Source of the DNA: Azonexus sp.
Lineage (GTDB): Bacteria; Pseudomonadota; Gammaproteobacteria; Burkholderiales; Rhodocyclaceae
Assembly (NCBI GenBank): GCA_041904995.1
Contig: JAYRMB010000003.1
Location: 86,447-150,446, forward strand
Length of the DNA stretch: 64,000 bases
Reading direction: 5' to 3'
In this document: in pieces, positions 10,081-26,768 of the stretch
Layout of the letters: every line of letters starts with the position of its first letter
Numbering within the stretch: position 1 is the stretch's first letter
Notes under the pieces: model-generated
What the model saw: only the letters and a program-made list of their open reading frames with translations
Databases searched by the model: none
What the model was told of the DNA's origin: nothing
Translations under genes and position numbers: made by a program

Positions 10081-10974
10081 ATGATCCAAATAAATTTTAA
10101 GTATTTAATGTTTGTGGCGACGCTATTGCTGGTCGCAATGATGCAGTCAGCATCCTTTGCAGCAGAAGCCCCAAAACAGGAACTTGTGATGGGCTTTGTT
10201 CCCAGTCGCGACGTGAACCAAATCCAGTTTTCTGCGGATCGTATCGCACACTTCCTGTCCGAACAGACCGGCTACAACATCAAGGCTGTTACAGCCCAGA
10301 GTTATGCAGCGGTCGTTGTCGGTATGAGTAACAAGACTATCGATATTGCATTTCTTGGGCCGCTCGATTATGTCGTCGGCCACATCAAGAATGGCGCTTA
10401 TCCAATTACTGCATCAGTCCGTGCAGGCAAGAAGGGATACAACGGCATCGTGATTGTGCGCAAGGACAGCGAGATCACAGATCTGAAAGGTTTGAAAGGC
10501 AAAACGCTTGCCTTGGGTGACCCGCTGTCAGCGTCGTCGAATCTCTATCCAAAATCCGCGATGATCAAAGCCGGTGTCGAGCCGATGAGAGACGTCAGGA
10601 CAATGACGCTAAGCAGCGCCAGCGCGATCGTTATGTCAGTCGCGCAAGGCAAGGTCGATGCAGGCGCGGTATATCTCGATGCGCGCAAAAATCCAGAGGT
10701 AGCTGCGCGCTTCCCGAAAATCATGGATGACACGAGGGTGATTCATTCTACCGAGACGATTCCGGCCGACCCGCAGATTGTGCGAAAGGATCTGAATCCG
10801 GAGCAGGTACAGGCGCTGAAGAGAGCGTTGCTCGTGTTGTCTTCCAACGGCGAAGGCCAGAAATGGCTGAAGGAATTGTTCGGCATCGACCAGTTGGTAG
10901 CAGCGGACGATCGGGACTACGACGGGCTGCGTCACGTAATTCGCGAGGTCAACCCGATGCTGTTGAATCCTTGA
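10081..10974 (+). CDS. phnD: Phosphate/phosphite/phosphonate ABC substrate-binding protein (PhnD-like)
   Basis: Signal peptide, GFVP, DIAFLGPLDY, LKGKTLALGDPLSASSNLYP, IPADP, DRDYD. Substrate not determinable from sequence. Confidence 0.85.
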   Translation: MIQINFKYLMFVATLLLVAMMQSASFAAEAPKQELVMGFVPSRDVNQIQFSADRIAHFLSEQTGYNIKAVTAQSYAAVVVGMSNKTIDIAFLGPLDYVVGHIKNGAYPITASVRAGKKGYNGIVIVRKDSEITDLKGLKGKTLALGDPLSASSNLYPKSAMIKAGVEPMRDVRTMTLSSASAIVMSVAQGKVDAGAVYLDARKNPEVAARFPKIMDDTRVIHSTETIPADPQIVRKDLNPEQVQALKRALLVLSSNGEGQKWLKELFGIDQLVAADDRDYDGLRHVIREVNPMLLNP

Positions 10975-10990
10975 TTGCTCAAGACAGAGC

Positions 10991-11734
10991 ATGGGTGATT
11001 TTCTCAGGACAGCTGGATTGGCGAAGCGTTTCGGTGACGCAGAATTTGCGTTAGCGCCTACGGATCTTGCCTTCGGTCGTGGGCAGTTCGTTGCTGTTAT
11101 CGGCCCATCTGGCGCGGGTAAAACAACGTTCCTGCGCTGCATGAACCGCATGATCGACCCGTCCGAGGGTAAGGTTTTCATCAACGGGCAATGCATCTCA
11201 TCAATGGGAAAGCGTGAGCTGAGGCGGCGCATTGCGATGGTCTTCCAACAACCCAATCTTGTGCAGCGCTTGAGCGCGCTCGATAACGTACTGATCGGAC
11301 GGCTAGGCTTTATGACCGGTATGCGCACATTGCTTCCATGTTTTAGGCGTGAAGACAAGATGAAGGCGCTCTCTGCGCTTGATCGAGTTGGCATGCTCGA
11401 GTACGCCGCTACTAGTTGCGTCAGCCTGTCGGGGGGGCAGCAGCAACGTGTGGCGGTCGCCAGGGCGCTCGCGCAGGAAGCCGATGTACTTCTTGCTGAC
11501 GAGCCCGTGTCCAGCCTGGATCCCGAGAATGCCGCCAAGGTCATGGCGCTCCTGAAGGACATCAATCAACAGGATGGTGTGACTGTGCTTGTAAACTTGC
11601 ATCAGATTGATCTTGCGAGACAGTGCGCCAATACCATCGTGGCATTCAAAGCTGGCCGTGTGGTTTATTTTGGCACTGGCGAGGCTTTCATGGATGAGCA
11701 TTATCAGAAAGTTTTCGTGGCGGCGGCATCGTGA
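10991..11734 (+). CDS. phnC: PhnC-like ABC ATPase
   Basis: GPSGAGKT, VFQQPNLVQRLSALDNVLIGRLG, LSGGQQQRVAVARAL, LADEPVSSLDP, VNLHQ. Confidence 0.88.
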   Translation: MGDFLRTAGLAKRFGDAEFALAPTDLAFGRGQFVAVIGPSGAGKTTFLRCMNRMIDPSEGKVFINGQCISSMGKRELRRRIAMVFQQPNLVQRLSALDNVLIGRLGFMTGMRTLLPCFRREDKMKALSALDRVGMLEYAATSCVSLSGGQQQRVAVARALAQEADVLLADEPVSSLDPENAAKVMALLKDINQQDGVTVLVNLHQIDLARQCANTIVAFKAGRVVYFGTGEAFMDEHYQKVFVAAAS

Positions 11735-12804
11735 AATCCAATCTCTCCGTAGCCCTCAATCTGTTACCCGGTGTTGGATATCTGCATCGCGGCGAATATC
11801 TGCGTGGCGCGCTCGATCTAGCATGCTTCATCATCGTTCTTGGCATCGGGCGGGGACTCCTGTCTGAAGGTGGTGTGTTTCTCTCCCTGCTTGTGATGGT
11901 CAGTTCGGCGTACCGTATGGCCTATGTAGTGCATGTGTCGGCACCGATCGTCCAGCAGGCGGGGCGGACTGCTGGAGGCTCTAAAACCATCGATCCGCTG
12001 GGCATGATTATGATGCTCAAACCGCGCTGGTGGGTGAGTGTGTTCAACTGGCCTTGGCTGTATATCGTAGTGGCTGCCATGTTGGTGGCGTATCTGTCGC
12101 GCGAGACTGAGTTGTCTTGGACGCAGATAGTCATGGGTGCTCCGGGCGCGATGGAGCTGGCGAAGGACTTTTTCTCGCCGGACTGGTCCCTCCTGCCGAA
12201 TGCTTTGGGATATGCGATGCAGACGATTGCGATCGCCGTCCTGGGTACCTTCTACGGCATACTGATCGCCGTACCAATGTCGGTGTTTTGCGCGAAGAAC
12301 CTGATGCGTGCAACGTCATCAACCCACTCGGTGTACTACGTCGCACGTTGGGGGATGGCGGTGATGCGAGCCACACCGACCTTCCTACTTGGATTGATTT
12401 TTGTCGCATGGGTAGGCTTGGGTCCATTTCCTGGCGTGCTGGCTATCACAATCTTTTCCGGCGCCTTAATGACCAAGCTGTTGTCGGAAGCTATCGAGTC
12501 GGTAAACCCGGGGCCAATCGAGGCAGCAACCGCTACGGGCGCTAATCTTTTCCACGTGATTCTCTTCTCGGTTTTTCCACAGCTGCCAACGGTATTTATT
12601 GCAATATCGCTTTACTGCCTCGAGATCAATATCCACAGCGCCACGGTTCTGGGTCTGATCGGTGCACAGGGCATAGGCATGCCCATACATGAATATCTTT
12701 CGTCCCTAGCCTATAGCAGTGCATCGGTCTATATCTTGGTCGTCATTTTCATCACGATCGGGACGGATTATGCGAGTGGTCTGGTTCGCTCGCGCATCAA
12801 ATAG
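11731..12804 (+). CDS. phnE: PhnE-like ABC permease with N-terminal TM extension
   Basis: EAIESVNPGPIEAATATGA, LEINIHSATVLGLIGAQGIG; overlaps the phnC stop. Confidence 0.85.
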   Translation: MKSNLSVALNLLPGVGYLHRGEYLRGALDLACFIIVLGIGRGLLSEGGVFLSLLVMVSSAYRMAYVVHVSAPIVQQAGRTAGGSKTIDPLGMIMMLKPRWWVSVFNWPWLYIVVAAMLVAYLSRETELSWTQIVMGAPGAMELAKDFFSPDWSLLPNALGYAMQTIAIAVLGTFYGILIAVPMSVFCAKNLMRATSSTHSVYYVARWGMAVMRATPTFLLGLIFVAWVGLGPFPGVLAITIFSGALMTKLLSEAIESVNPGPIEAATATGANLFHVILFSVFPQLPTVFIAISLYCLEINIHSATVLGLIGAQGIGMPIHEYLSSLAYSSASVYILVVIFITIGTDYASGLVRSRIK

Positions 12805-12951
12805 CGAATGAAACCACTGTTTGAAAATTGCTATTTTGACTCCGTATCCATTTTCCGGGATGGAACTACACGCACGGTCAGTTACTTGTTGTTTTCAACT
12901 TGGCGAGGATTTATTCATGAATTTGTCCGATTTCTTCATAGGAGAGATAAA

Positions 12952-13473
12952 TTGAAAAATCAGCATTGTCCGTCTACTCAGCGCAAGTCGCTGTTCATCG
13001 TGTCGAGCCCGGATATCGTCGGAGAGAAACTCAACGATAAGCATGTATTCAATGGCTTCGGCTACTCAGGAGGAAATGAGTCGCCAGAACTCAAATGGAG
13101 TGGAGCACCGATTGACACCAAGAGCTTCGCCATCACTCTCTATGACCCGGATGCTCCAACTGGCAGCGGGTGGTGGCATTGGGTCGTATATAACATTCCG
13201 GCAAATGTTACCTCTCTACCTGGGGGGGCCGGAGCGGATGGCGGAAAATCGCTACCCGAAGGGGCGGCAATGGGGCGCAATGATTTTGGTTTGAAGGCCT
13301 ATGGCGGAGCCTGCCCGCCACCTGGCAAGCAGCACCGCTACCTTTTCACAGTGCACGCTTTGATGATCGAGAAGATCGAGGTACCAGAAGACGCATCGCC
13401 CGCCTTAATCGGTTTCAACCTTACTAGTAACTGCATCGACAAGGCGGTGTTGACCACGATCTATGGATCTTAG
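12952..13473 (+). CDS. YbhB/YbcL (PEBP/RKIP-like) protein
   Basis: GGNESPELKW, SFAITLYDPDAPTGSGWWHW, GACPPPG, HRYLFTVHAL; TTG start inferred from RBS AGGAGA. Confidence 0.85.
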   Translation: MKNQHCPSTQRKSLFIVSSPDIVGEKLNDKHVFNGFGYSGGNESPELKWSGAPIDTKSFAITLYDPDAPTGSGWWHWVVYNIPANVTSLPGGAGADGGKSLPEGAAMGRNDFGLKAYGGACPPPGKQHRYLFTVHALMIEKIEVPEDASPALIGFNLTSNCIDKAVLTTIYGS

Positions 13474-13614: not shown

Positions 13615-15357
13615 ATGTCAATAGATAAATTGATCGATGATCTAGTCACCCAGGCTGGAAAAATGCCAGCATCCATTTCGGTTCAACGTGCACTCACGGT
13701 GGATGGGTGTATCCCAGAGGAGGACAAGCTTGCGCCATTAACGTCAGCAGAACGTTACGCAATCGAATGCATCACACGTAAGAATCACAGCTTCGCGAGC
13801 GACGGTCAAATTAGTTTGGCTTTCCGGCCTCACGGGAGATTGCATGTTCTGCCGAGAGAGGATTTTGAAGTTCACTCTGAATTTCTTACATTAATTGGGC
13901 ATGTTGAATTAACAGAAGCTGAGCTAGTAACTTACTTGGCAACAAAGCAGTCTGCACAGTGTGCGTTGGAAGAAGAACGAACTGTCATTCTAAGTTACTT
14001 GTTCAAGCATGGGTTCGAATGCATATGTGGTGAGTTGTCGCGCTTGTCCGAACATATGGCGCCGTTAATTTATTACGTTGGCGAAATCTGTATTTCTAAT
14101 TTCTATGACATTGGAAAGTCTGATTTCAAGTTGGAAAGTACTTTGGAACATGCCTTGAAAGAGGTTCTCGAGCAGCGTGAAAATGCTCCCATAGAGTTTC
14201 TGACCACCATCTATTGTCTGCATCTGCTTTTGCAGTCTGGAAGCTATACGCGCCTCGAAGAATTGAATTCGAGCCAACTGTCTCGATCCGTTCTAGCGGA
14301 TTACTTTGATGCCAAATACGGCGTCTATCAGAAAGCGGGCGGTGTTTACTCTGATGTGGAGAGCTACTCCTTGTTTTCCTCGTCCTCTCTGGAGGATAAA
14401 GCGGTATTGCTCGCGCATATCCGGAGGAGCATAGAAACTACTAGCCGTTTTACTCGCCATATCAATGGCGTGAATCTGCGCAAGAAGGAAAACATTCTTC
14501 CAATTCCTCCTGCCCAAGTAAATGCTTCACTCCCGTCCCTGCATCGCTCTGCGCACACTATGGCCATGCTACAGCGTTGGGTGGGGCCAAACAGATCTGC
14601 TCAACAAACCTTCCTTCCCAGTTCTTTTGGGGATCTGCTCAAAGAAATAGAAATATTGCTTGCACAAAAAGCTTCGTTTCCGTCTCGACTTGAGTCCTTA
14701 ATTGATTATGTGGTCGCAGAGGCAGTGTGCAGCACACGATCTGATTTCGGCATGACTCGCGGTGCACGTGATTTCCTTAAGTTCGCCACGGCCTTGTGCC
14801 AGGGGCAAACTGAAGTTGCCAGTTCGTGGGGACAGGGAGAGTATTTCTGCCACGTAGTGCCAAACGAAGAAATGAAGGCAGCGTATTCACCAAAGACGCT
14901 CTCAATGATTCTCAATGCAATATCCGGACGCATGCGCTACAACTCTTGGCATTACGCGCCAAGCTATTTCGAAATTGCGAGCATTTCTGCTGACCGAGGC
15001 TGGTTCTATGCCCCACGAATGGCCGATATTGCAGACTGGTGCGACCAGCATCACACCGGCCATATACATGCCTCCGTTCGTTACAGCATCAGATCCCCTC
15101 TGCCCATTTGCGTACGAGATTCCGTGTTCCCGGGATTCATTGATTTGAGGTTAATGCGTCAGTCTGGCGATCCGTATAGCCGAGAGGATTTGGTCACAGC
15201 CATTGCCTACACTGAAGCTCTTCAGTTCATCTATCAGAGCTTGATGAATTTTGTATTGAAAGAAAACAAAAGTTTTGTATTTACTTTTGGCGATAAAAAG
15301 TGGATCGAAAAAGTCTGCTTACCACAGACACCAGAGATGGTTGCCGCAATCGCGTAG
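13615..15357 (+). CDS. 580-aa hypothetical protein, probable enzyme
   Basis: Long open frame inside the operon; motif-like blocks RLEELNSSQ, RHINGVNLRKKE, HVVP, RMRYNSWHY, DQHHTGH, DLRLMR; no family recognised. Confidence 0.85.
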   Translation: MSIDKLIDDLVTQAGKMPASISVQRALTVDGCIPEEDKLAPLTSAERYAIECITRKNHSFASDGQISLAFRPHGRLHVLPREDFEVHSEFLTLIGHVELTEAELVTYLATKQSAQCALEEERTVILSYLFKHGFECICGELSRLSEHMAPLIYYVGEICISNFYDIGKSDFKLESTLEHALKEVLEQRENAPIEFLTTIYCLHLLLQSGSYTRLEELNSSQLSRSVLADYFDAKYGVYQKAGGVYSDVESYSLFSSSSLEDKAVLLAHIRRSIETTSRFTRHINGVNLRKKENILPIPPAQVNASLPSLHRSAHTMAMLQRWVGPNRSAQQTFLPSSFGDLLKEIEILLAQKASFPSRLESLIDYVVAEAVCSTRSDFGMTRGARDFLKFATALCQGQTEVASSWGQGEYFCHVVPNEEMKAAYSPKTLSMILNAISGRMRYNSWHYAPSYFEIASISADRGWFYAPRMADIADWCDQHHTGHIHASVRYSIRSPLPICVRDSVFPGFIDLRLMRQSGDPYSREDLVTAIAYTEALQFIYQSLMNFVLKENKSFVFTFGDKKWIEKVCLPQTPEMVAAIA

Positions 15358-15382
15358 CTTGCACAAATAGGAGGAGAGAGAA

Positions 15383-15718
15383 ATGACTTTCGTCGTTACC
15401 GAAAATTGTATTCGCTGCAAATATATGGACTGCGTTGCGCCTTGTCCCGTGGATTGCTTCTATGAAGGTCCGGAGTTTTTGGTTATCAATCCAGATGAAT
15501 GTATCGATTGCAATGTTTGTGCAGTGGAGTGTCCAGTCGATGCAATTTATCAAGATAAAAATCTGCCGGAAAATCAAAAAGAGTTCATCGAGATAAATAA
15601 ACAACTCTCACAAATATGGCCACGTGTGACTGGTGGTACCTCTGCCCCACTGCCAGATGCTGAACATTGGCGAACGGTGAGTAATAAAAAGGGCTTCCTG
15701 GTTCTACCAGAAAACTGA
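15383..15718 (+). CDS. fdxA: 7Fe (3Fe-4S/4Fe-4S) ferredoxin, FdxA type
   Basis: [29 protein letters not shown]...CIDCNVC...CP; RBS AGGAG. Confidence 0.9.
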
Positions 15719-15853: not shown

Positions 15854-16756
15854 TTGAGTGATCTGAAGTTGTCAGAAATAGTGCGACGAAAAATTTCGTC
15901 GGTCAAAGGTATCCAGGAGACTTCGATATCCGCAGAGAGCTCCATTAAGGATGATTTGGGAATTTCGTCGATGGAGTTTATTACCATTTTGACCGAAGTT
16001 GCTGAGGTGCTGCGTATTGATCTGATGAAGTTTTCAGAGAAAGAAATTGTCACCGCTCTTACTGTCGGCGACCTGGAGCGAGTAATTGCCTCGAAGCTTC
16101 CCAAGCAAGGAGAAAAAGTGATCAATTTTAGTTCTGACATCGTATTGAAGGGATGGGGGGTTGTACTTAGGCCTTGGATGGAGCAAGACGTTGGGCAGAT
16201 TGTAGAGTCGGCTACAGACCCGCTTGTTTGGAAATATACGACTGAGGCACTTTCGAACAAGGGCGACGTTGTTAAATATGTTGCGCGGGCTATGGCTGAT
16301 CGAGAGGCGGGTAAGCGCTACTCTTTCGCAATTTGTCTGGAAGGTAGCGATGCAATCGTGGGTAGCTCTAGCTTCGGGAATATGTCTGCAAAAGATGGCC
16401 GACTCGAAATCGGTTGGACTTGGTTAGCCCCGGAATATCACGGGCAAGGACTTAACAACGTCGTCAAGTACCTCATGTTGAAATATGGTTTTGAGGAGCT
16501 CGATTCACACCGTATAGAGTTTAAGACGGACAACGCAAACCCTCGATCGTGCGGAGCGCTTGAAAAGATTGGTGCAAAGCGGGATGGCGTTTTGCGTTCG
16601 CACACCTTAATGCATGATGGGCGCTATCGGGATACGGCGTACTACTCGATACTCAACGAAGAATGGGCTCAGGTGAACGCTGCGCTTTGCCATCGGATAG
16701 CGAGCGTGCTTGAGCAAGGGGCTGATTACTCACAAAACGTATCCATTGCTGGATGA
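15854..16756 (+). CDS. Acyl carrier protein fused to a RimJ/RimL-type GNAT acetyltransferase
   Basis: Residues 1-82 ACP-like (DDLGISSMEF, TVGDL); the rest GNAT (EIGWTWL, HRIEFKTDNAN, GVLRSH, RDTAYYSIL). Confidence 0.82.
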   Translation: MSDLKLSEIVRRKISSVKGIQETSISAESSIKDDLGISSMEFITILTEVAEVLRIDLMKFSEKEIVTALTVGDLERVIASKLPKQGEKVINFSSDIVLKGWGVVLRPWMEQDVGQIVESATDPLVWKYTTEALSNKGDVVKYVARAMADREAGKRYSFAICLEGSDAIVGSSSFGNMSAKDGRLEIGWTWLAPEYHGQGLNNVVKYLMLKYGFEELDSHRIEFKTDNANPRSCGALEKIGAKRDGVLRSHTLMHDGRYRDTAYYSILNEEWAQVNAALCHRIASVLEQGADYSQNVSIAG

Positions 16757-16830: not shown

Positions 16831-17997
16831 ATGCAAATGCCAGAAAATGCTGTGCGGCTATCGGGTGATCCGATAACCCGCGGGGTCCAGCATGGGCGAA
16901 AGCTGGCCCCAGAAATCAAACGCCTTCTTTCTAATGACTGTGCGCGGATTAACTGCCATCTATCACGCCCTGTTCCGGAGGAGCTGATCTACGCTTATGT
17001 GAGGAAATTCGCTTTTGAAATAGAGAGGGAATTACCTTTGATCGCGGCAGAGATTGAAGGGCTCTCCAAGGGCGCGGAGATTTCTTATGAGCAAGCAGTT
17101 CTCCTCCAGGTCCGCCGTGAAATTTTAATGCACCTGCGTAAAGGTGCTAACAGCGACTGCTCTACATTTTCGCTACCGATAAATAAACGGGTTGTTGCTC
17201 AAACTATCGACCTCAATAGTTCCTTTGCAGAATTTGGCACGGTATTCCAAATTGAACCTTGGTGCGGTAGCCCCGAAATCCTGATGTTCTCTTTCGCTGG
17301 TTTGCTGGGGTACATGGGCATGAATTCCAGTGGCCTAGCTATTGCGATCAATATGGTTTCTTCTGATGATTGGCGTCCAGGCGTTCCTCCCTATCTGTTG
17401 GTGCGCCACTTGCTGGAGCTACACACCGTTGAGGAGTGTCTTGAGGCAATAGCAAATATTCGGCGAAGCAGTTCCCGCAGTTTCACTATCTGCGACTCGA
17501 CGCGCAGTGTTACGGTCGAAATGACCGCTACTTCATTCGCCGTTCTGGAAGGGAAGAAGTTGTTGCACACCAATCATTATTTGTCTCCTGATTTGGCCCC
17601 TTACGACACCATCAATTTTCTAGCTCGGCACTCTTCCATGCAGCGGCTTGCGAAGCTTCATACCTTAACGCAAAACCTTCCAGAAACGCCGGCCGTCAGC
17701 GAGCTATTCAATCTCTTCGCTGATCACGAAAACCATCCTGTCGGATTATGTAGTCACGCCGATGGCGATCTGCGCCGGACGGAAACAGTTGCCACGGCAG
17801 TAATGCATCCGGCGACTGGAACGATGTACGTTCGTAAGGGAATGCCGTGCTGCGGCTGTGAAATTGAAAAGTTCACGATGGCCAGCATGGATGTTAAATC
17901 CGACATGCAGGCTATTTCCGCCGCGACTCATCGAGTAAGTGATAGTCGGCCTGACCTGGTGCCGGGCGTTCAATTCGAAAATATCGGGCAGTTATGA
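16831..17997 (+). CDS. C45-family Ntn hydrolase/acyltransferase (isopenicillin-N acyltransferase-like)
   Basis: RGVQHG, EIEGLSKGA, DCST (Cys110 candidate nucleophile), AQTID, GMNSSGLAIAIN, HTNHY. Confidence 0.85.
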   Translation: MQMPENAVRLSGDPITRGVQHGRKLAPEIKRLLSNDCARINCHLSRPVPEELIYAYVRKFAFEIERELPLIAAEIEGLSKGAEISYEQAVLLQVRREILMHLRKGANSDCSTFSLPINKRVVAQTIDLNSSFAEFGTVFQIEPWCGSPEILMFSFAGLLGYMGMNSSGLAIAINMVSSDDWRPGVPPYLLVRHLLELHTVEECLEAIANIRRSSSRSFTICDSTRSVTVEMTATSFAVLEGKKLLHTNHYLSPDLAPYDTINFLARHSSMQRLAKLHTLTQNLPETPAVSELFNLFADHENHPVGLCSHADGDLRRTETVATAVMHPATGTMYVRKGMPCCGCEIEKFTMASMDVKSDMQAISAATHRVSDSRPDLVPGVQFENIGQL

Positions 17998-18839
17998 ATC
18001 ACAGACTCCAATCTTCAAGTTCTGACGCGACAGAACTCTCCCCCAACGCACTGATGGCCACAGCAAAAGAAATTACCGCTTCGGACGGAGAGAAAATTCG
18101 TTGGGTTGAGTTTGGTTGTGGGAGGCCGCTTGTGGTCTCGCCGGCTCTGGGGACCCCCCTTGCATCGTGGCTGCCCGCGTTATTGGTGTTGTCAGCTGAC
18201 TTCAGAATATTTTTTGCCTTAACCCGAGGAGGCTGCGAGGGGGCCACGCCGAAAGGATTGGCTAATTTAACTGTCCAGCGTCGAGGGGAGGATTTGGCCG
18301 AGCTTATCAACTCGTTAGATCACAGAGAGTACTGCATGGTTGCGCACTCGAGCGGCGTTTCTCCCGCAGTTGTTAGCCTGAAGCAACTAAATACGCCGCC
18401 GTCGCACGTCTGTTTAATCTCCGCCAGATACGGTGCGGGCCAGCCTATTGGCGCCGAAGATTTGCTTCAGCGCGCTAGAAAAGACTCTGGATTCATGAAC
18501 GTTGTTCAGTCGATTGTTGTTAATTACTCTCCGCCGTCCGCTGCCGGCGTAATGCGAGAGCTATTGCGTGATTTTGGCCGGCTTGAAGCATTGCTTCGAG
18601 CCTTTGATCTATCACGTACCTTCAGCTACACCGAACCCTTGTGCGCCGGTATCGCGATGACTTTCGTTATGGCCGAGCATGATCCAGACGACGTGCGAAA
18701 GACGACTCGCCAAATAGTCGATGCCCAATTGGGAGAGCCATGGGCATTGGTTGATGTTCCAGATGTAGGTCACTTTTTTGTACAGGACGATGGCGAGGCG
18801 GCGGCAGCACTTATCGCTACACGCCTTTCTTCGCAATAA
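17994..18839 (+). CDS. Alpha/beta hydrolase (thioesterase-like)
   Basis: Nucleophile elbow AHSSG and C-terminal VGHF; ATGA overlap with the C45 gene. Confidence 0.75.
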   Translation: MNHRLQSSSSDATELSPNALMATAKEITASDGEKIRWVEFGCGRPLVVSPALGTPLASWLPALLVLSADFRIFFALTRGGCEGATPKGLANLTVQRRGEDLAELINSLDHREYCMVAHSSGVSPAVVSLKQLNTPPSHVCLISARYGAGQPIGAEDLLQRARKDSGFMNVVQSIVVNYSPPSAAGVMRELLRDFGRLEALLRAFDLSRTFSYTEPLCAGIAMTFVMAEHDPDDVRKTTRQIVDAQLGEPWALVDVPDVGHFFVQDDGEAAAALIATRLSSQ

Positions 18840-18934: not shown

Positions 18935-19588
18935 ATGGCCCACTTTGAGAACGTTGAAACGATAGCCAAAACACAGTGGTACGCCTCTCCGACAGCAGAA
19001 ACAGCGCACAAAGTTGCGCAATGCGTAGATGACGGCGGTGTCGCGATGTTTCCTGCCGATACGGTTTACGGATTTTTCGGCAATGCGCTCGACCCAAAGT
19101 CGTATGAGCGCGTCTACGACATCAAAAGGCGAGAGCGTCGGAAACCCTTTGTTATATACACGGTTGCATCTCGGGTTGAGCAGGTCGCCTACCTCAACCC
19201 AATGGCGCAGCGATTAATTGAGCGCTTCTGGCCGGATGAGGCACTTGCTCTGGTTCTTCCCAAAAAGGACATCATTTCGAACAGTTTTACTGATGGGAAG
19301 GACACGGTTGCAGTGATGTCGGCTAGCGGAGGCTTTATCTCCGAGGTGATGCGTACCTGCAATTCAATCATGTTTGGAACGACTTGCAATATTTCTGGCA
19401 TGCCAGAAATTACTAAGATCGACGATGCACACGAGTTTAATGAGCAAGTAAATATCGCCGTTGGTGGAGACAGCCTTTTGAGACACAGTGTGCCGTCAAC
19501 CATTGTCGACTGTACTGGTGCTGTGCCAAAAATCCTTCGAGAGTCGGCAATTCCGGCTTCAGTTGTATTTGAAGTGTGTCGCGCTTGA
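18935..19588 (+). CDS. Divergent TsaC/YrdC/Sua5-family adenylating enzyme
   Basis: GGVAMFPADTVYG, IKRRERRKP, GTTCNISG, PSTIVD; stand-alone YrdC domain. Confidence 0.85.
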   Translation: MAHFENVETIAKTQWYASPTAETAHKVAQCVDDGGVAMFPADTVYGFFGNALDPKSYERVYDIKRRERRKPFVIYTVASRVEQVAYLNPMAQRLIERFWPDEALALVLPKKDIISNSFTDGKDTVAVMSASGGFISEVMRTCNSIMFGTTCNISGMPEITKIDDAHEFNEQVNIAVGGDSLLRHSVPSTIVDCTGAVPKILRESAIPASVVFEVCRA

Positions 19589-19702: not shown

Positions 19703-20869
19703 ATGCCTAGACTATTTCTGCTTGTTCTTTTTCTGACGGTAGCAATCAATACTGGTATGGGAATGATTATTCCCGTCATGCCAACCCTTCTCAAAGAGTT
19801 TGGTTTTAGCACGTTAGGACTATCGCTACCCTTCGCCGCCCTGATCATTGCACGGATAGTTTCAAAGCCTTGGGCGGGTGTCGCACTCAATCGTCTGGGT
19901 GGGCGCTACCTTATGTTGATGGTTTTCGCCGTCTACTCACTTGCGTTTTTCTTGTACCCGGTCTGCCATAGCCAATTTGGCTTTATTTTGCTGAGAGTGC
20001 TGGAGGGCTTTGCCGAAGGCGTGGGTGGAGTCGTCATAACGAATTCAGCAATCGTGATGACGACTGGCCTACGAAACCGTGGGGTTCTTATGGGCTACTT
20101 CTCAGCAGCATTCGGCGTGGGCTTCATTGTCGGACCAATAATCGGTTGGCTAGCACTCGAAACCGTGGGTACCACTGGAATGTTCTTTGTAGGTGGATGT
20201 GTCGGCCTGCTCGGATTGGTTGCAAGTGCTATGTTGCCGCGAAGAAATAATGAGTCGTTGCCGCCAAAAACGAGCCTAAGAGAGCTTGCCAATAATTTGG
20301 GATATCTCATTCCATACATCCCCAGCGTACTTCGAAGAGCGTTGTTTTTCTCTTTCATGATTATTGTGCCGTTATTTGCCACGGGTCGATTAGGGGTTTC
20401 TGCAGAAAAGGTCGGCTTACTGTTTACAGCGTCTGGAATAATCTCAACAGTATGTATGTTTTTTACTGGGAAACTCGCGGATTTCTTTGACCCCAAGAAA
20501 TTAGCGGCTTGGTGCCTCGCAGGGATGGGCATTCTGATCGCCATATGCGGATTCACAAATTCGGTTGAGGCATTTTTGGTTTTCTTTCTTGCGGAAACAC
20601 TACTTTTCGCAATTATGTTGCCTGCGGGTACGAAAGTATTTGCAGTCGCGATTGACAATCATCCTTTGCGCGAGCCAATGGTTGGTTCATTCGGTAGCTT
20701 TACCGAAGTATGCACCGTCATTTTGGCCTTTCTGCTTCCGGCTATTTTAGAAATTAGTATCACCGGCGCCTGGGTCTTTATGGGGGGGCTTTGTGTCGTT
20801 GGTGCTGTGCTATTGCTTCAATGGCAGCCCATTTCCGGGGCCAGGCGCGAAGTCGTAAGCACGAGCTGA
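19703..20869 (+). CDS. MFS transporter (probable exporter)
   Basis: About 12 hydrophobic segments, motif-A-like NRLGGR, LRVLEGFAEG, GFIVGPIIG. Confidence 0.88.
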   Translation: MPRLFLLVLFLTVAINTGMGMIIPVMPTLLKEFGFSTLGLSLPFAALIIARIVSKPWAGVALNRLGGRYLMLMVFAVYSLAFFLYPVCHSQFGFILLRVLEGFAEGVGGVVITNSAIVMTTGLRNRGVLMGYFSAAFGVGFIVGPIIGWLALETVGTTGMFFVGGCVGLLGLVASAMLPRRNNESLPPKTSLRELANNLGYLIPYIPSVLRRALFFSFMIIVPLFATGRLGVSAEKVGLLFTASGIISTVCMFFTGKLADFFDPKKLAAWCLAGMGILIAICGFTNSVEAFLVFFLAETLLFAIMLPAGTKVFAVAIDNHPLREPMVGSFGSFTEVCTVILAFLLPAILEISITGAWVFMGGLCVVGAVLLLQWQPISGARREVVSTS

Positions 20870-20969
20870 ACGACAGCATGCCGATGGCTGAGGTCGACCA
20901 TTGATCGACACAAAAGCACGTCGTAGCAACGCTCAATTTGACTGTTAGAAAATGATCTAAGGTGTGCGA

Positions 20970-22121
20970 ATGCAAATATCCAATGGAAGAAAAACCCCAT
21001 TTCACGATGAGCACGTAAAGGCCGGAGGTAGATTGATGTCTATCTCCGGGTGGGTCAGGCCGCTCCACTATGGTTCGCCTGCAATGGAGATTTCTGCTAT
21101 TCGGAATGCGCTTGGACTTTTTGATCTCCACCCCATGAGCAGGCATATTATCGAAGGCCCCGACGCTCTTGCATTTATGCAGCTCGTAGTAACAAGCGAT
21201 GTAAAACGAGCGATATCCAATTCCGCGGCCCAGTACACATGCTTTTGCGATGAACGGGGCGGAATCATTGATGACGTGTTGATCTTCCCGAGGTCTGCCG
21301 ATGAGTTCCTGATCACTTCCAGTGTTGCGGCTGCAGAAACGCTGGGGGGGTGGATGAGGCGGTGGGTCCAGGAGAGTGGTTTGAATGTTCAATTGCGTGA
21401 TATCAGTGCATTCGAAACCCAATTTGCATTACAAGGGCCGCGCAGCCTGGAACTCGTTCGCAAAGAGTTTGGGGCGAAGGTCGCTGCCTTAAAGCACATG
21501 CAATTTGTCGAGACAGCGCTCAACGGCACTCCTGTGTTCTTGGCCCGCACTGGGTATACGGGAGAGTGTGGCTTTGAGTTTCTTGCTGATGCTCATCAAG
21601 CAGCAGATCTATGGCAGTACTTGCTTGAATCTGGCGCGGAATTCGGTATCGCACCGTTCGGAATCATGGCCGCTCAAACGCTACGCATTGAAAAAGGATA
21701 CGTACTGAATGGTGTAGATATGAGTAGCCAAAACAATCCCTATGAGATTGGCCTTGATTGGACGGTTTGTACGGACAAGGAGGGTTTTCTGGGGAAAGAT
21801 GAACTGTTACGCGCGAAGGCTCAAGGCGTTAAGCGACGCTTTCGCAGATTCTATATCGAGGGAACGGACATAGTACCCAGCGGCACAGAGATCTATGCTC
21901 AAGAGAGCGAAGTCGGTCGAGTTACTAGTTGCTGTAATAGCCCCACGTTAGGTCGTGTCATTGGAATGGGCTTGGTTGATACGTCGATTAGCGGAGACTG
22001 TCCATACTACGTGCGAAGAGGTAATCAGCGATGGCAGGTGTCTTTCATCGAAAGGGCGTTTTATGACCCAGAGGGCACCAGGCTAAAAGCGATACTGCCC
22101 GAAGAGAGTTTGTTGGGCTGA
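20970..22121 (+). CDS. GcvT-family folate-binding aminomethyltransferase-like protein
   Basis: RKTPFHDEH, GLFD, GGIIDD, FALQGP, RTGYTGECGFE, LRIEKGY, GRVTS; no gcvH or gcvP nearby. Confidence 0.9.
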   Translation: MQISNGRKTPFHDEHVKAGGRLMSISGWVRPLHYGSPAMEISAIRNALGLFDLHPMSRHIIEGPDALAFMQLVVTSDVKRAISNSAAQYTCFCDERGGIIDDVLIFPRSADEFLITSSVAAAETLGGWMRRWVQESGLNVQLRDISAFETQFALQGPRSLELVRKEFGAKVAALKHMQFVETALNGTPVFLARTGYTGECGFEFLADAHQAADLWQYLLESGAEFGIAPFGIMAAQTLRIEKGYVLNGVDMSSQNNPYEIGLDWTVCTDKEGFLGKDELLRAKAQGVKRRFRRFYIEGTDIVPSGTEIYAQESEVGRVTSCCNSPTLGRVIGMGLVDTSISGDCPYYVRRGNQRWQVSFIERAFYDPEGTRLKAILPEESLLG

Positions 22122-22124
22122 ACG

Positions 22125-22862
22125 ATGTGCGGAGACAATTTTTCTTATTCCGTTAGACACAATATCTGCATAACGACAAGGGCGATCTGTCTACTGATGG
22201 CATGCGTACTGCCATTTGAATCTTTCGCAGCGGAGGATGGATTTTCGATCGCGAACAGCATCACCCGTCTTCAGATACGTAATACGGTCGACACAAATGA
22301 CATTACTAGCGTTACCGCTTCATCTTTTTTGCAAGCAAAAAACAAGACGTACTTCTTGGGAATTGTCGACTATCAAGTGGATCATGAGCGGCACAACATC
22401 AATGGCCGCATCGAGGGAAATCTGGGCGGTCCATTTCCCGGCAGTCCTTTGGGTTGGGTTGCGCGTGGCAGAGTGTATTACCAGCAAAACTCGGTTGCTG
22501 CCGCGGGCGTACAGCTGAGCTTCAATGAGTTGCCCGAATTGGGGCCCGTCCTTAAAAAGTTAGGTATTACAACCTTCGTACAATTGCTCCGCAATACCAA
22601 TGATCCTTATTTCGGCGATTCCGAGGTTCTTCACTACTACAGTGTCGATATTGTCCCTAAACAATTAGCGCTCCGCGGATACAACGTGTTCAACAGCGCG
22701 GGGAAAGATAAGGCTGTTCGCAACTCTTGGGCAGACCTAATTTATTCGTTAAATGACAGGTTCGACGTTTACTACCGGATAAACGATGTGAGCCGGAAAA
22801 ATGGATATCTCGGCCCACCTGGAGCAACGCAATATTTAGGGTTTCGGATCAACTGGTATTAG
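22125..22862 (+). CDS. Putative exported/outer-membrane beta-barrel protein
   Basis: Signal-like ...ACVLPFESFA, alternating beta-strand pattern, aromatic C-terminus YLGFRINWY. Confidence 0.55.
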   Translation: MCGDNFSYSVRHNICITTRAICLLMACVLPFESFAAEDGFSIANSITRLQIRNTVDTNDITSVTASSFLQAKNKTYFLGIVDYQVDHERHNINGRIEGNLGGPFPGSPLGWVARGRVYYQQNSVAAAGVQLSFNELPELGPVLKKLGITTFVQLLRNTNDPYFGDSEVLHYYSVDIVPKQLALRGYNVFNSAGKDKAVRNSWADLIYSLNDRFDVYYRINDVSRKNGYLGPPGATQYLGFRINWY

Positions 22863-24470: not shown

Positions 24471-25310
24471 ATGCTGTTGCATTCTATAAATTGGCCACCG
24501 TTTAATTCGACGGATTCCGTTAGCGCAACCCGGCCTCAAATCGAATCTGCATTACCAGGACTCGAAGGTTCTTGGTCGATGTCCGTTCATAGCACGCAAC
24601 CAGACGAGCCCGTCTTAGAACTCACAGTACATTTCGTTGAGTTCGAGAGTCGGCTCTCTGTGCTGGGCAATGGTAAAACGTTAGCCGGCTCGTCGTGCCC
24701 AACGCAAATAGGGTTCAGCGCATCTTGTCGCAAAGCGGAGTTTTCATCGGGACGACAGGCCGCGCGATGTGCCCTAACGCAACTCTCCCCCGCGCTGGCC
24801 AGCGTGTTAGTACCTATTGGTGGTGATCGAGAGCCACTTTGGCCGCAAGGCGTAGTGGGAAGTATCACGCATGTCTCGGGCTTGGCGGGAGCTGCGGTAG
24901 GTCTGTCAAATTCGTGGCGCTACCTGGGAATTGATCTTGAGCAGACTGCAGGTGGCAAAGCACAGTCGGCGTTACGCGCTTTTGTGCTCGACAGTGCGGA
25001 ACTATCGTTGCTGCAACGACGCTGCGAAGCGATTGGGCAACTTAACCTGGATACTCATGTTACTCACGTCTTCAGCGCGAAGGAGTGCTTGTACAAAGCA
25101 GCCTTCCCGAGTGTGCGCCGCTTCTTCGGTTTTTCCGAAGCCAGGTTGTGCGAATACGATTTTCTTTCTGCCGATCGTGGACCTGAGGTTCGGCTTGCGC
25201 TTGAAATTACGGATGGGCTTGGCGGCGAATTTGTCGCGGGTAGCCGCTGGTGGGTTGAGGTTTGGCGAATAAAAACCCCCTATACATATCTGTCTGTGTT
25301 GGCGTGCTAG
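24471..25310 (+). CDS. 4'-phosphopantetheinyl transferase (EntD/Sfp type)
   Basis: RKAEFSSGRQAAR, PLWPQGVVGSITH, LGIDLE, FSAKECLYKA. Start uncertain. Confidence 0.9.
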   Translation: MLLHSINWPPFNSTDSVSATRPQIESALPGLEGSWSMSVHSTQPDEPVLELTVHFVEFESRLSVLGNGKTLAGSSCPTQIGFSASCRKAEFSSGRQAARCALTQLSPALASVLVPIGGDREPLWPQGVVGSITHVSGLAGAAVGLSNSWRYLGIDLEQTAGGKAQSALRAFVLDSAELSLLQRRCEAIGQLNLDTHVTHVFSAKECLYKAAFPSVRRFFGFSEARLCEYDFLSADRGPEVRLALEITDGLGGEFVAGSRWWVEVWRIKTPYTYLSVLAC

Positions 25311-25599: not shown

Positions 25600-26412
25600 A
25601 TGACTTATATCGTACCTTCAGAATTTGCCAAGAAAATGGTGGATGCAGGCGAATCAAAAATCTGCATGTCCACTCGAGATACGTTGATCCGTGCGTACAT
25701 GGCTGGCGCGGTCTTGGCACTATCTGCCGCATTTGCCATATTTCTTAGCGTGCAAACTCAACAACCGTTAATAGGAGCATTGTTCTTTCCAGTCGGTTTC
25801 TCGATGCTCTATTTAATGGGGTTTGATTTACTGACTGGCGTGTTCGTCCTAGCCCCGTTGGCATTGATTGATAGACGGCCCGGTGCAACGATAAAAGGTG
25901 TCCTTCGAAATTGGAGTTTGGTCTTTTTCGGCAATTTTGTGGGCGCCCTCACCGTAGCAATGATGATGGCAGTCGTGTTTACTTATGGCTTCTCCACGTC
26001 TCCTGGTCCAGTTGGAGAAAGAATTGCCAGTATCGCTGAAGGACGGACCCTAGGGTATGCACAGTACGGTTTGGCGGGCTGGATTACCATCTTCTTTCGC
26101 GGCGTGCTGTGCAATTGGATGGTCTCGATGGGAGTCGTAGGGGCCATGATCTCAACAACTGTGGGCGGCATGGTCATCGCAATGTGGATGCCAATTATGT
26201 TGTTCTTCGCAATGGGATTCGAACACTCAGTGGTCAACATGTTCTTATTCCCTTCGGCGATGATTATGGGTGGCAATTTTACAATTGCTGACTATTTTAT
26301 TTGGAACGAAATTCCGACCGTTCTCGGCAATATGCTCGGCGGCTTGGTGTTTACAGGCATGGCACTTTATAGCACCCATGTGAGAACGGGTGCAAAACGC
26401 AGCGTTACCTAA
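25600..26412 (+). CDS. Formate/nitrite transporter (FNT) family channel
   Basis: LLTG, FFGNFVG, GVLCNWMV, GFEHSVVNMF, LGNMLGG. Confidence 0.93.
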   Translation: MTYIVPSEFAKKMVDAGESKICMSTRDTLIRAYMAGAVLALSAAFAIFLSVQTQQPLIGALFFPVGFSMLYLMGFDLLTGVFVLAPLALIDRRPGATIKGVLRNWSLVFFGNFVGALTVAMMMAVVFTYGFSTSPGPVGERIASIAEGRTLGYAQYGLAGWITIFFRGVLCNWMVSMGVVGAMISTTVGGMVIAMWMPIMLFFAMGFEHSVVNMFLFPSAMIMGGNFTIADYFIWNEIPTVLGNMLGGLVFTGMALYSTHVRTGAKRSVT

Positions 26413-26768
26413 TCTCAAAGCCATCAAGGCATGGAGCATGGCTCATTTTTAGTAACTATTCACGCACGACAGGTTGATCGAAATCGAGGCCAAGCTACTA
26501 CCTATAGTAGCTCGAAAATGAACCAATCCTCGAAATTTGTCGTATTTAGCACGGCGTCATGGTGGCGCTGAATGCATTGTTCTACAAGTGGTTGTTTTTC
26601 ACGGTTTTCGGAAAAGCCCCGCTGAATGGATACCATTTTTATATCTGCCAGCCCGGCTTGTTATCAAAGCGGCCGTATCTTTCTGGCGCTTCGTTGCACA
26701 TCCGAATCTAAGTAATACATCACTTTTCTTCTTCACTGCCGCACATGGCACAACCCCAAGGAACCCAC

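Follow-up and report, generated by a model that had tools for sequence, protein, structure and literature searches.

Encoded on the forward strand at positions 13615..15357 of the window (the whole stretch of DNA analyzed, 64,000 nucleotides in length) is a protein of 580 amino acid residues, the function of which is the question addressed here. An initial annotation had treated it as an orphan, and as a ferredoxin-dependent metallo- or heme enzyme. Sequence conservation, homology to the proteins of known cassettes, residue mapping, a structural model, the adjacency of a ferredoxin gene, and the homology of the neighboring module indicate that it is very probably a heme-b hydrazine synthase belonging to the KinJ/FzmP/FsnU2/NegJ family, and that the 7Fe ferredoxin encoded downstream is its dedicated redox partner.

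Members of this family, which was first described in 2025, bind heme b and, with a tightly bound ferredoxin such as KinI or FsnV, carry out the four-electron reduction of nitrite and the formation of an N-N bond to an amino acid (Kenney et al. 2025, bioRxiv 10.1101/2025.05.27.656397; Shi et al. 2025, PMC12408219). The products are hydrazinosuccinate from aspartate or hydrazinoacetate from glycine. KinJ (kinamycin), FzmP (fosfazinomycin), FsnU2/FlsU2 (fluostatin), and Lom29 (lomaiviticin) are L-hydrazinosuccinate synthases, and the characterized cassette members all use L-aspartate with the exception of NegJ (10.1101/2025.05.27.656397; PMC12408219). NegJ, from the negamycin pathway of Kitasatospora purpeofusca, is reported to convert glycine to hydrazinoacetic acid and to function with a 7Fe ferredoxin.

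Sequence relatives, active-site residues, and predicted fold

The reading frame begins with ATG and is exactly as described in the initial annotation, and the five motifs picked out there are all present, namely HVVP (residues 413-416), RMRYNSWHY (439-447), RGWFYAPRMADIA (461-473), DQHHTGH (477-483), and DLRLMR (510-515). They are strongly conserved among homologs. An alignment of 52 full-length homologs contains 66 invariant columns, among them R439, M440, R441, N443, W445, H446, and Y447 as well as H479, H480, H483, R493, R512, and R515. The C-terminus had also been described as rich in histidine, tryptophan, and tyrosine, which holds for tryptophan (2.8% versus 0.2%) and tyrosine (5.6% versus 3.5%), but histidine is raised only locally (4.8% in residues 405-530 versus 3.2%).

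No Pfam-A or NCBIfam match of any kind was observed for the enzyme, and sequence searches of the PDB returned chance matches only, either with the single sequence (frataxin, E 1.2) or with a 52-sequence profile (E 0.32). With respect to these resources, the earlier statement that no family could be recognized is correct. The protein is not an orphan, however, given that the 90%-identity clusters contain 61 homologs and that a search of 1.84 billion proteins yields 262 representatives at E ≤ 0.001. Nor is the family unrecognized, for it was characterized in 2025 and is merely absent from Pfam and NCBIfam; as a consequence of that absence, genome annotation names every member "hypothetical". The orphan status thus falls in light of a confident match to a characterized family.

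That match is provided by full-length relatives, 27-31% identical in sequence, which are encoded within the "hydrazino cassette" of Streptomyces (lyase-GNAT-X-amidase-GS, equivalent to fzmR-Q-P-O-N). BLASTP comparisons with proteins of actinobacterial hydrazino cassettes gave 28% identity over 576 columns (E 2e-44) and, for a second comparator, 27% over 580 columns (E 3e-43); these comparators are cassette-encoded homologs rather than purified proteins, and one of them matches the KinJ residue numbering at 9/9 positions. When an HMM of the proteobacterial clade was run against the 1.84 billion sequences, representatives 62% identical to the cassette proteins were retrieved with E values of 2e-63 and 1e-70, and tblastn with the enzyme gave matches in 40 or more actinomycete loci. 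By Pfam, the neighbors of the actinobacterial relatives are Lyase_1/ADSL, GNAT, X, Amidase, and Gln-synt_C, again the fzmR-Q-P-O-N order, often accompanied by a CreE-like NAD_binding_9 flavoprotein. Natural fusions of the KinJ domain with an AMP-binding domain also exist. Counted against membership in the family is the low identity, 27-28%, to the characterized clade.

The active-site residues of KinJ could be mapped onto the 580-residue enzyme. Specifically, K356, C468, R497, M498, and N501 of KinJ correspond to K290, C412, R439, M440, and N443, whereas H504, H541, R551, and R570 correspond to H446, H483, R493, and R512. Each of these nine residues is kept in at least 175 of the 193 family sequences, and all of the residues singled out by the two 2025 papers are conserved in the enzyme. 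The predicted axial heme ligand, H483, lies within the DQHHTGH motif and is a histidine in 192 of the 193 sequences; for its equivalents, KinJ H541 and FsnU2 H532, mutagenesis data have been published (10.1101/2025.05.27.656397; PMC12408219). R439, R493, and R512, kept in 193, 191, and 193 of the 193 sequences, respectively, are predicted to form an anion-binding triad by analogy to R497/R551/R570 of KinJ and R488/R542/R561 of FsnU2. The Arg-His-Arg-Arg spacing of 44/10/19 is common to all three proteins. The motifs that had been picked out as enzyme-like do, then, contain the published axial histidine, the arginine triad, and heme-pocket residues. Heme binding, which is not readable from a sequence, is predicted for the 580-residue protein by homology, as is its role as a ferredoxin-dependent enzyme; the earlier suggestion of a metallo- or heme enzyme agrees with a family found experimentally to contain heme b and to need a bound ferredoxin. 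An iron-sulfur enzyme built on C159, C201, and C412 was considered and dropped, given that C412 maps to the heme-pocket cysteine of KinJ. Of the three cysteines, C412 alone is invariant in the 52 full-length homologs, and C159 and C201 are more than 90% conserved.

The AF2 model of the enzyme has a pLDDT of 89.6 and a pTM of 0.89. A Foldseek search with the model against the PDB revealed no significant full-length match and nothing at E ≤ 0.001. The best partial matches were to the heme-GAF domains of DosS/DosT and the bilin-GAF domain of PixJ/cyanobacteriochrome, with a Foldseek probability of up to 0.98, TM scores of 0.55-0.60 relative to the target, and E values of 0.1-0.9. The overall architecture is thus that of a two-domain protein, with a predicted GAF-like C-terminal heme domain and an N-terminal domain without structural precedent. 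The same weak matches to the GAF domains of DosT and PixJ have been published for KinJ (Kenney et al. 2025, bioRxiv 10.1101/2025.05.27.656397).

The probable partner ferredoxin and the surrounding gene cluster

All of the genes given below with coordinates are located on the forward strand. The ferredoxin gene (15383..15718, 111 residues), preceded by an AGGAGG ribosome-binding site, starts 25 bp past the stop codon of the enzyme, just as the initial annotation had it. The protein is of the 7Fe ([3Fe-4S][4Fe-4S]) FdxA type; it scores 151.8 bits against the NCBIfam model FdxA_Protbact (cut-off 135), includes DUF3470, and has as its best PDB match the 7Fe ferredoxin I from Azotobacter vinelandii (5e-41). 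Ferredoxins of the 7Fe type have been noted in Burkholderia-type clusters (Kenney et al. 2025, 10.1101/2025.05.27.656397). The supplement of that paper mentions neither the content of Burkholderia clusters nor an aminomethyltransferase. In every complete proteobacterial locus, and in five different contexts, the ferredoxin adjoins the enzyme homolog, and aminotransferases flank the homolog in two other contexts.

Among the Proteobacteria the pair is found in five or more unrelated gene neighborhoods, and further ones are seen in the Actinobacteria. Accordingly, the enzyme, which had been put forward as the best marker gene for the cluster family, marks N-N bond-forming clusters in general. The most cluster-type-specific gene is instead that for a small outer-membrane β-barrel channel (22125..22862). 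The barrel contains a signal peptide, 12 strands, and a C-terminal ...RINWY sequence, and is a new sequence family, with no family match found. Only 11 homologs were identified; the two with organism names come from Sideroxyarcus and Marinobacter, in the very genomes in which the same cluster occurs. Its model (pLDDT 84, 12 strands) is matched structurally by PcoB (2.9e-5), OmpG, and NanC (TM 0.57/0.66).

Upstream of the enzyme is an ABC importer of the phosphonate/phosphite type (10081..12804), consisting of a binding protein (10081-10974), an ATPase (10991-11734), and a permease (11731-12804). It is syntenic in Marinobacter, and the nearest solved relatives of its binding protein, PtxB (1.4e-27), ArrX, HtxB, and AioX, bind small oxyanions. 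A PEBP/YbhB-YbcL family protein (12808..13473) lies directly upstream of the enzyme and occupies the same position in Marinobacter. Downstream of the ferredoxin is a fusion of an acyl carrier protein with a PF13302 GNAT (15854..16756), homologous to the N-succinyltransferases of the DobB/AzaB/Tri31 type and to the DobQ-type carrier. Compared with its counterparts in two canonical hydrazinoacetate (Haa) cassettes, the fusion shows 40-41% identity in its GNAT domain (1e-41 to 1e-46) and 29% in its ACP domain (3e-6). The next gene encodes a C45 (AAT-family, PF03417) autoproteolytic acyltransferase/hydrolase (16831..17997), a DobA/AzaA homolog that is 40-50% identical to the C45 proteins of lysine-hydroxylase/MetRS-cupin/DAO hydrazine cassettes. 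The AMP-forming ligase (PF00501; 22882..24462) is a homolog of the DobC/AzaC/Tri29-type adenylases, and a full-length comparison with the ligases encoded in two Haa cassettes gives 33% identity (1e-73 to 1e-86); its nearest solved relatives are oxalyl-CoA synthetase, malonyl-CoA synthetase, and MenE, all of which act on small dicarboxylates. An Sfp/EntD-type phosphopantetheinyl transferase (24471..25310) would prime the carrier protein. In vitro reconstitution has established the roles of the GNAT, ligase, ACP, and C45 components of the hydrazinoacetate module (Nature 2026, PMC13061610). By analogy, the GNAT would be a hydrazinoacetate N-succinyltransferase, the ligase would load succinyl-hydrazinoacetate onto the carrier protein, and the C45 enzyme would remove the succinyl group from the carrier-bound intermediate (PMC13061610).

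Between the C45 gene and the barrel are found an α/β hydrolase (17994..18839) that is conserved in the Sideroxyarcus cluster and presumably functions in thioester release or transfer, a Sua5/YrdC/YciO-family protein (18935..19588) of a type associated with ATP-dependent carboxyl/carbamoyl-adenylate chemistry, an MFS transporter (19703..20869), and a folate-dependent GcvT-family aminomethyltransferase (20964..22121) that accompanies the enzyme in two kinds of gene neighborhood. The MFS transporter, presumed to be the product exporter, also adjoins the enzyme homolog in the minimal module of another locus. A formate/nitrite transporter (FNT) channel (25600..26412) is a plausible candidate for nitrite supply; it reaches neither the FocA nor the NirC cut-off, and in Marinobacter, too, its gene comes after that of the ferredoxin. 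The right end of the island is marked by an AspC/TyrB-type aminotransferase (26745..27989; PRK09257, 570 bits). Its membership in the cluster is uncertain: its GC content is intermediate and differs from that of the cluster, and it is not adjacent to the Marinobacter cluster within the sequence examined there.

The cluster is positioned on a low-GC island in a host background of 65% GC, and the left flank of the island carries an IS21-type istA/istB pair and an IS481-family transposase. It is a mobile gene cluster of Gram-negative bacteria, and Marinobacter sp. LM1 possesses the same set of genes. The possibilities of a phaseolotoxin-type or isonitrile-type cluster, or of a Tn7-like element, were considered and found to be unsupported. 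A scan for promoters and terminators over the cluster was not above chance overall; its best promoter-like site (9785-9812) falls in the AT-rich gap upstream of the ABC importer.

Proposed chemistry and the amine acceptor

In the proposed mechanism, the enzyme and the ferredoxin would form a heterodimer, as predicted from the homologous pairs. Nitrite would bind to the heme iron, held by H483 in the GAF-like C-terminal domain, and the ferredoxin would supply four low-potential electrons. The cluster lacks the nitrite-generating genes CreD/CreE, and for this reason nitrite is probably taken up from outside, via the FNT channel and possibly via the PtxB-like ABC importer and the outer-membrane barrel. 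With modest confidence, the acceptor is taken to be glycine and the product hydrazinoacetate, given that the neighbors of the enzyme (ACP-GNAT, C45, AMP-ligase, and phosphopantetheinyl transferase) have their homologs in the module that processes hydrazinoacetate. Clusters in which KinJ is found together with homologs of Tri31/Tri29 have been described, and glycine was inferred there as the substrate (Kenney et al. 2025, 10.1101/2025.05.27.656397). The PF13302 GNAT would then acylate hydrazinoacetate on nitrogen, the AMP-ligase would adenylate the acylated product and attach it to the fused carrier, for the priming of which the cluster has its own phosphopantetheinyl transferase, and the C45 enzyme would take the acyl group off again. 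Release or tailoring might be accomplished by the α/β hydrolase, the Sua5/YrdC-like protein, and GcvT, and export by the MFS transporter. The FAD oxidoreductase of the hydrazone module (PF02770) is absent between 10 and 28 kb, and thus the downstream chemistry must differ from that of the triacsin, azaserine, and dob pathways.

The same family and mechanism could also serve L-aspartate, giving L-hydrazinosuccinate, with this dicarboxylate, or an acyl derivative of it, loaded onto the carrier protein by the ligase. The characterized members other than NegJ use L-aspartate, related proteobacterial homologs adjoin an ADSL-like lyase or a GNAT together with a CreE-like flavoprotein, and an AspC/TyrB-type aminotransferase is situated at the end of the island. 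That aminotransferase, however, differs in GC content and was not found beside the Marinobacter cluster in the sequence examined. The preference of the ligase's solved relatives for small dicarboxylates, which might also be cited in favor of aspartate, does not discriminate between the two, for succinyl-hydrazinoacetate is itself dicarboxylate-like. Moreover, the window contains no FzmQ/R/N/O-type genes for processing hydrazinosuccinate, whereas clear homologs of all four hydrazinoacetate-handling proteins are present in the cluster, and L-aspartate is thus regarded as unlikely. Less probable still is that, in the proteobacterial clade, the amine joined to reduced nitrite is something other than glycine or aspartate, such as an imported aminophosphonate, another amino acid produced by the neighboring aminotransferase, or an amine attached to the carrier, so that a new hydrazine building block would result. 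Members with known specificity share only 27-31% identity with the clade, the range of substrates accepted by the family has been stressed as unknown (Kenney et al. 2025, 10.1101/2025.05.27.656397), the phosphonate/phosphite-type importer and the PEBP gene are syntenic with the enzyme in two genomes, and the GcvT and Sua5/YrdC-like genes are without counterpart in known hydrazine pathways. Yet neither the arginine triad nor the pocket residues have changed, the module downstream has its homolog in one acting on hydrazinoacetate, and nothing speaks positively for any other amine.

It is highly improbable that no N-N bond is formed at all, the protein serving instead to detoxify or assimilate nitrite as a ferredoxin-dependent heme reductase, or regulating the cluster as a heme-GAF sensor that responds to NO or nitrite. 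The structural matches are solely to GAF sensor domains, the family does reduce nitrite at its heme, and the cluster includes an FNT channel. Against this, every residue that KinJ and FsnU2 require for making a hydrazine is conserved, the enzyme has no output or DNA-binding domain, and across lineages the gene resides in biosynthetic rather than regulatory clusters and also occurs fused to adenylation domains. The GAF sensor was set aside because the catalytic residues are conserved and the gene contexts are biosynthetic; the 580-residue protein is taken to be an enzyme. A siroheme nitrite reductase, suggested by the size of the protein, the ferredoxin, and the FNT channel, has no supporting domain, with neither NIR_SIR/NIR_SIR_ferr nor any other nitrite-reductase family detected in the enzyme by Pfam or NCBIfam.

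A broader reading of the whole cluster, built around the hydrazine synthase, is offered tentatively. The cluster might make an undescribed N-N metabolite through the heme/7Fe-ferredoxin synthase and a carrier module without the hydrazone oxidoreductase. As parts of this tentative reading, GcvT and the Sua5/YrdC-like protein might modify the hydrazine, with one-carbon or carbamoyl chemistry at its nitrogen as an example; environmental nitrite might enter by a dedicated route comprising the barrel, the PtxB-like importer, and the FNT channel; and IS-rich islands might carry the unit between Gram-negative bacteria of freshwater and marine habitats. The enzyme may, within the same reading, accept an amine other than glycine or aspartate.

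Relationship to known systems

The locus adds to the 2025 family a well-conserved proteobacterial branch, the 7Fe partner of which is always encoded alongside. A heme enzyme is here combined with a carrier-protein module that is otherwise fed by the lysine-dependent hydrazine machinery, and the cluster thereby lends direct genomic support to the proposal, already in print, that either route to hydrazinoacetate can stand in for the other. It also suggests nitrite import as a source in producers without CreD/E, and its product could be a new hydrazine-derived metabolite. The Gram-negative gene pair (13615-15718) is compact and may lend itself better to expression and study than the actinomycete enzymes, the activity of which is poor.

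With KinJ, FzmP, FsnU2, and Lom29 the enzyme shares full-length homology, a two-domain size of about 560-630 residues, the GAF-like C-terminal domain, an identical axial histidine, the arginine triad and its spacing, the Cys/Met/His/Asn/Lys pocket, and an adjacent ferredoxin gene. It differs in that the partner is of the 7Fe FdxA type and is encoded downstream, whereas theirs is of the 8Fe KinI type and is encoded upstream, and in that its substrate is probably not aspartate. The FzmN/O/Q/R glutamyl-hydrazine cassette, that is, the GS-like FzmN, the amidase FzmO, the GNAT FzmQ, and the ADSL-like lyase FzmR, is missing from the window cluster, which is therefore not of the fosfazinomycin/kinamycin type. 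There is likewise no CreD/E or NOS source of nitrogen oxides. With NegJ the enzyme has in common a probable glycine substrate, a probable hydrazinoacetate product, and the use of a 7Fe ferredoxin. The ferredoxin of NegJ is reported to be encoded outside its cluster; the negamycin cluster, as described, contains lysine-modifying, N-methylation, and ATP-grasp genes and no carrier-protein module.

The C-terminal domain has its best structural matches in DosS/DosT from M. tuberculosis and in PixJ, but there is no sequence similarity to these proteins, no kinase or other output domain, and no precedent for the N-terminal domain. With the triacsin (Tri29-31), azaserine (AzaA/B/C/Q), and dob (DobA/B/C/Q/M) systems the cluster shares the PF13302 GNAT, the AMP-ligase, the ACP, and the C45 enzyme, 29-50% identical, and it has its own phosphopantetheinyl transferase. 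In contrast to those systems, the ACP is fused to the GNAT, and GcvT, Sua5/YrdC-like, transporter, and outer-membrane genes are additionally present. Without PF02770, the hydrazone step is either missing or accomplished by something else. The lysine N6-hydroxylase (PF13434), the MetRS/cupin protein, and the DAO oxidase (PF01266) of those systems are absent at 10-28 kb, and in place of this lysine-hydroxylase trio the heme enzyme and its ferredoxin would take over formation of the N-N bond.

The gene pair and its genomic island

The protein of interest is encoded by an open reading frame at 13615..15357 (+), which begins with ATG and specifies 580 residues. The five motifs singled out in the initial annotation lie at residues 413-416 (HVVP), 439-447 (RMRYNSWHY), 461-473, 477-483 (DQHHTGH), and 510-515 (DLRLMR). 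As that annotation also stated, a ferredoxin reading frame (15383..15718) starts 25 bp past the stop codon; it is preceded by an AGGAGG ribosome-binding site. The ferredoxin is of the proteobacterial FdxA, 7Fe type (NCBIfam NF045490, 151.8 bits; cut-off 135), contains DUF3470, and has as its best solved relative the Azotobacter vinelandii 7Fe ferredoxin I (5e-41). The 580-residue protein itself matched nothing in Pfam-A, NCBIfam, or PDB sequence searches, and the earlier remark that no family could be recognized is true for these collections. One public copy (P0216) is annotated as 564 residues in length, from Met 17, which corresponds to a start at 13663 rather than 13615. The longer form is favored because an MSIxK N-terminus is conserved among the homologs.

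The gene is located within a block of ~50% GC (about 9.7-26.6 kb) in a background of ~65% GC. The left flank of this island (4647-9271) contains an IS21-type istB (4647-5405, -) and istA (5415-7376, -), an HTH gene (7539-8012), and an IS481-family transposase (8258-9271, -). A Marinobacter copy of the cluster is bordered by IS3, IS66, and Mu-type transposases and a mer operon. That IS elements flank both copies suggests horizontal spread, and the cluster is apparently a cryptic, mobile one of Gram-negative bacteria. Genes of the HD-GYP type (HD_5) are positioned on both sides of the island at 2292-3497 (+) and 28344-29234 (+). The two are 42% identical, but the N-terminal DUF3391 domain is missing from the right-hand copy, which the insertion may thus have truncated. 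A second, smaller islet of low GC (0.43-0.50; 31044-33091, -) lies beside tRNA-Gly(CCC) (30856-30929). Its 468-residue AAA ATPase and 208-residue protein resemble PADLOC HEC-01A (1e-98) and HEC-01B (1e-14), respectively, and constitute a candidate anti-phage system.

Membership in the KinJ/FzmP family

The protein had been described as an orphan, a term that is now out of date. Among 5.8 billion proteins it has 61 homologs, all nameless or "hypothetical" and none with a Pfam domain; their sources are Sideroxyarcus, Marinobacter, Aquabacterium, Ramlibacter, and metagenomes. With a profile, 262 relatives were recovered at E<=0.001 among 1.84 billion representatives, 186 of them at E<=1e-30. Alignment of the 52 full-length homologs revealed 66 invariant columns, and the annotated motifs rank with the best-conserved parts of the sequence. 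Scanning of one genome per species yielded 53 loci, most with full-length relatives (27-31% identity) in Streptomyces, Nocardia, Kitasatospora, Umezawaea, Micromonospora, and others. Clustering of the neighboring reading frames around the actinobacterial relatives revealed a recurrent arrangement, by Pfam Lyase_1/ADSL_C, small GNAT, the homolog, Amidase, and Gln-synt_C, to which an NAD_binding_9 flavoprotein and a second lyase are often added. The literature knows this arrangement as the fzmR-Q-P-O-N / kinJ-N hydrazino cassette, accompanied by nitrite generation of the CreE/CreD type. When the window protein was compared directly by BLASTP with two homologs encoded in such cassettes, the E values were 2e-44 and 3e-43 over ~575 columns.

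The family was characterized in two 2025 reports, by Kenney, Wang, Ng, van der Donk, and Balskus (bioRxiv 10.1101/2025.05.27.656397) and by Shi et al. (Synth Syst Biotechnol, PMC12408219). According to these reports, KinJ, FzmP, and FsnU2, formerly without any protein family, bind a low-potential heme b and pair tightly with a ferredoxin (KinI or FsnV) as a heterodimer. This partner and anaerobic conditions are both required for the conversion of nitrite and L-aspartate to L-hydrazinosuccinate, a net four-electron reduction. NegJ of the negamycin pathway converts glycine to hydrazinoacetate. The Burkholderia-type clusters use 7Fe ferredoxins akin to the A. vinelandii protein (bioRxiv 10.1101/2025.05.27.656397).

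Published KinJ numbering was transferred through the homolog at locus L052, whose ferredoxin gene is immediately upstream, the same order as in kinI-kinJ. After trimming of its over-long start, this proxy matched the published residue identities at nine of nine numbered positions. In a 193-sequence alignment, the heme-pocket residues Cys 468, Met 498, and His 504 of KinJ correspond to Cys 412, Met 440, and His 446 of the window protein, the pocket residues Lys 356 and Asn 501 to Lys 290 and Asn 443, the axial heme ligand His 541 to His 483, and the anion-binding Arg 497, Arg 551, and Arg 570 to Arg 439, Arg 493, and Arg 512. Conservation of these nine residues ranges from 175 sequences to all 193. 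The essential Arg 488, His 532, Arg 542, and Arg 561 of FsnU2 show the same 44/10/19 spacing as Arg 439, His 483, Arg 493, and Arg 512. On the basis of this mapping, four of the annotated motifs would be active-site elements: HVVP the heme-pocket Cys-His, RMRYNSWHY the Arg-Met-Asn-His block, DQHHTGH the axial-His motif, and DLRLMR the third arginine.

An AlphaFold2 model built from a 52-sequence alignment (pLDDT 89.6, pTM 0.89) returned nothing from the PDB at E<=0.001 with Foldseek, one of the checks that had been proposed. Ranked highest were GAF domains, namely those that bind heme in DosS/DosT and those that bind bilin in cyanobacteriochromes and PixJ, the same outcome as that given for KinJ by Kenney et al. 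(bioRxiv 10.1101/2025.05.27.656397). In light of the sequence, residues, fold, and partner, the window protein is very probably a new member of this heme hydrazine synthase family, with the same general mechanism, and the original proposal of a ferredoxin-dependent metallo- or heme enzyme is in all likelihood correct.

Gene contexts of the enzyme and its ferredoxin

Five distinct proteobacterial contexts were examined, and in four the ferredoxin gene is immediately downstream of the homolog. Marinobacter carries the window's gene set, cyclically permuted, with the ferredoxin directly downstream. Two others read MocR regulator, aminotransferase, enzyme, ferredoxin, ADSL-like lyase, ATP-grasp, EamA, and GGT, and MocR, MFS, aminotransferase, enzyme, ferredoxin, and radical-SAM enzyme; another comprises enzyme, ferredoxin, GNAT, and CreE-like flavoprotein. 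In the remaining one (loci L003/L004 and probably L014), the ferredoxin, of the 7Fe type, belongs to the same four-gene minimal module, Fdx-GcvT-MFS-enzyme, with no other biosynthetic genes nearby. Adjacency was also observed in Sideroxyarcus, Trinickia, Limnobacter, Ramlibacter, and alphaproteobacterial genomes. The enzyme had been put forward as the best marker for this cluster family, which is too narrow a view given that the two-gene module is so widely shared.

In Aquabacterium (L005/L006), the pair lies beside an ADSL-like lyase, an ATP-grasp protein, and a gamma-glutamyl transpeptidase, and in an uncultured proteobacterium (L007) beside a small GNAT and a CreE-like flavoprotein. These surroundings look like Gram-negative counterparts to parts of the glutamyl-hydrazine logic. 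GcvT, a folate-dependent aminomethyltransferase, is common to the minimal module of L003/L004 and the window cluster. The supplement of Kenney et al. makes no mention of an aminomethyltransferase.

Proposed nitrite supply and acceptor, and comparison with known pathways

All genes from 10081 to 26412 lie on the + strand. They encode, in order, a PtxB/PhnD-like binding protein with ABC ATPase and permease, a PEBP/YbhB protein, the heme enzyme homolog, the 7Fe ferredoxin, an ACP-GNAT (PF13302), a C45/AAT protein, an alpha/beta hydrolase, a Sua5/YrdC-like protein, an MFS transporter, GcvT, a 245-residue protein (22125-22862), an AMP-ligase, a PPTase, and an FNT channel, after which follows an AspC/TyrB-type aminotransferase (26745-27989). 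FzmN/O/Q/R and CreD/E are absent from the cluster, as is any NOS gene. Family scores do not separate the formate from the nitrite type for the FNT channel, and the importer's binding protein is closest to the small-oxyanion binders PtxB, ArrX, HtxB, and AioX. The 245-residue protein has a signal peptide; sequence searches of Pfam, NCBIfam, and the PDB found nothing for it. Its AlphaFold2 model (12 beta strands, pLDDT 84) matches PcoB, OmpG, and NanC by Foldseek, and it is predicted to be a small outer-membrane beta-barrel channel. Only 11 homologs were found among 5.8 billion proteins, and the two with organism names come from Sideroxyarcus and Marinobacter genomes with the same cluster. The protein represents a new small porin family and is the most specific marker for this cluster type. 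With CreD/E and NOS genes missing, and an FNT protein, an oxyanion-type importer, and a predicted outer-membrane channel encoded in the cluster, uptake of nitrite from outside is plausible.

In the carrier-protein module that serves the triacsin, azaserine, and dob pathways, as defined in 2026 (PMC13061610), hydrazinoacetate is succinylated by a PF13302 GNAT and attached to the carrier protein by a PF00501 adenylase; oxidation to the hydrazone falls to a PF02770 FAD enzyme, and removal of the succinyl group to a PF03417 C45 enzyme. The window C45 protein has homologs at 40-50% identity within such cassettes of Streptomyces yokosukanensis and a Ferruginibacter genome. Against the corresponding genes of these two cassettes, the GNAT domain shows 40-41% identity (1e-41 to 1e-46) and the AMP-ligase 33% over its full length (1e-73 to 1e-86); the ACP domain shows 29% (3e-6). 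These four matches argue that the window cluster carries a hydrazinoacetate-handling module. In five representative homologs (P0075, P0132, P0162, P0166, and P0170; 822-1137 residues), the KinJ-family domain is fused to a C-terminal AMP-binding adenylation domain, which would independently tie the enzyme's product to adenylation. No mention of this fusion was found in the available portions of the two 2025 reports.

With such a module at hand, glycine, the substrate of NegJ, is the acceptor that we favor, albeit with reservation. Aspartate is the acceptor in the KinJ reaction, and its use here is considered unlikely; that of another amine is less likely again. In contrast to the triacsin, azaserine, and dob clusters, that of the window lacks the PF02770 oxidoreductase, and thus its later chemistry differs from that of the known pathways. 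Those three pathways obtain hydrazinoacetate by a lysine N6-hydroxylase (PF13434), a MetRS/cupin enzyme, and a PF01266 oxidase (PMC13061610). In place of this lysine-dependent N-N machinery, the window cluster has the heme enzyme homolog and its ferredoxin, a replacement that Kenney et al. foresaw in their "cluster E" with glycine as the implied substrate (10.1101/2025.05.27.656397).
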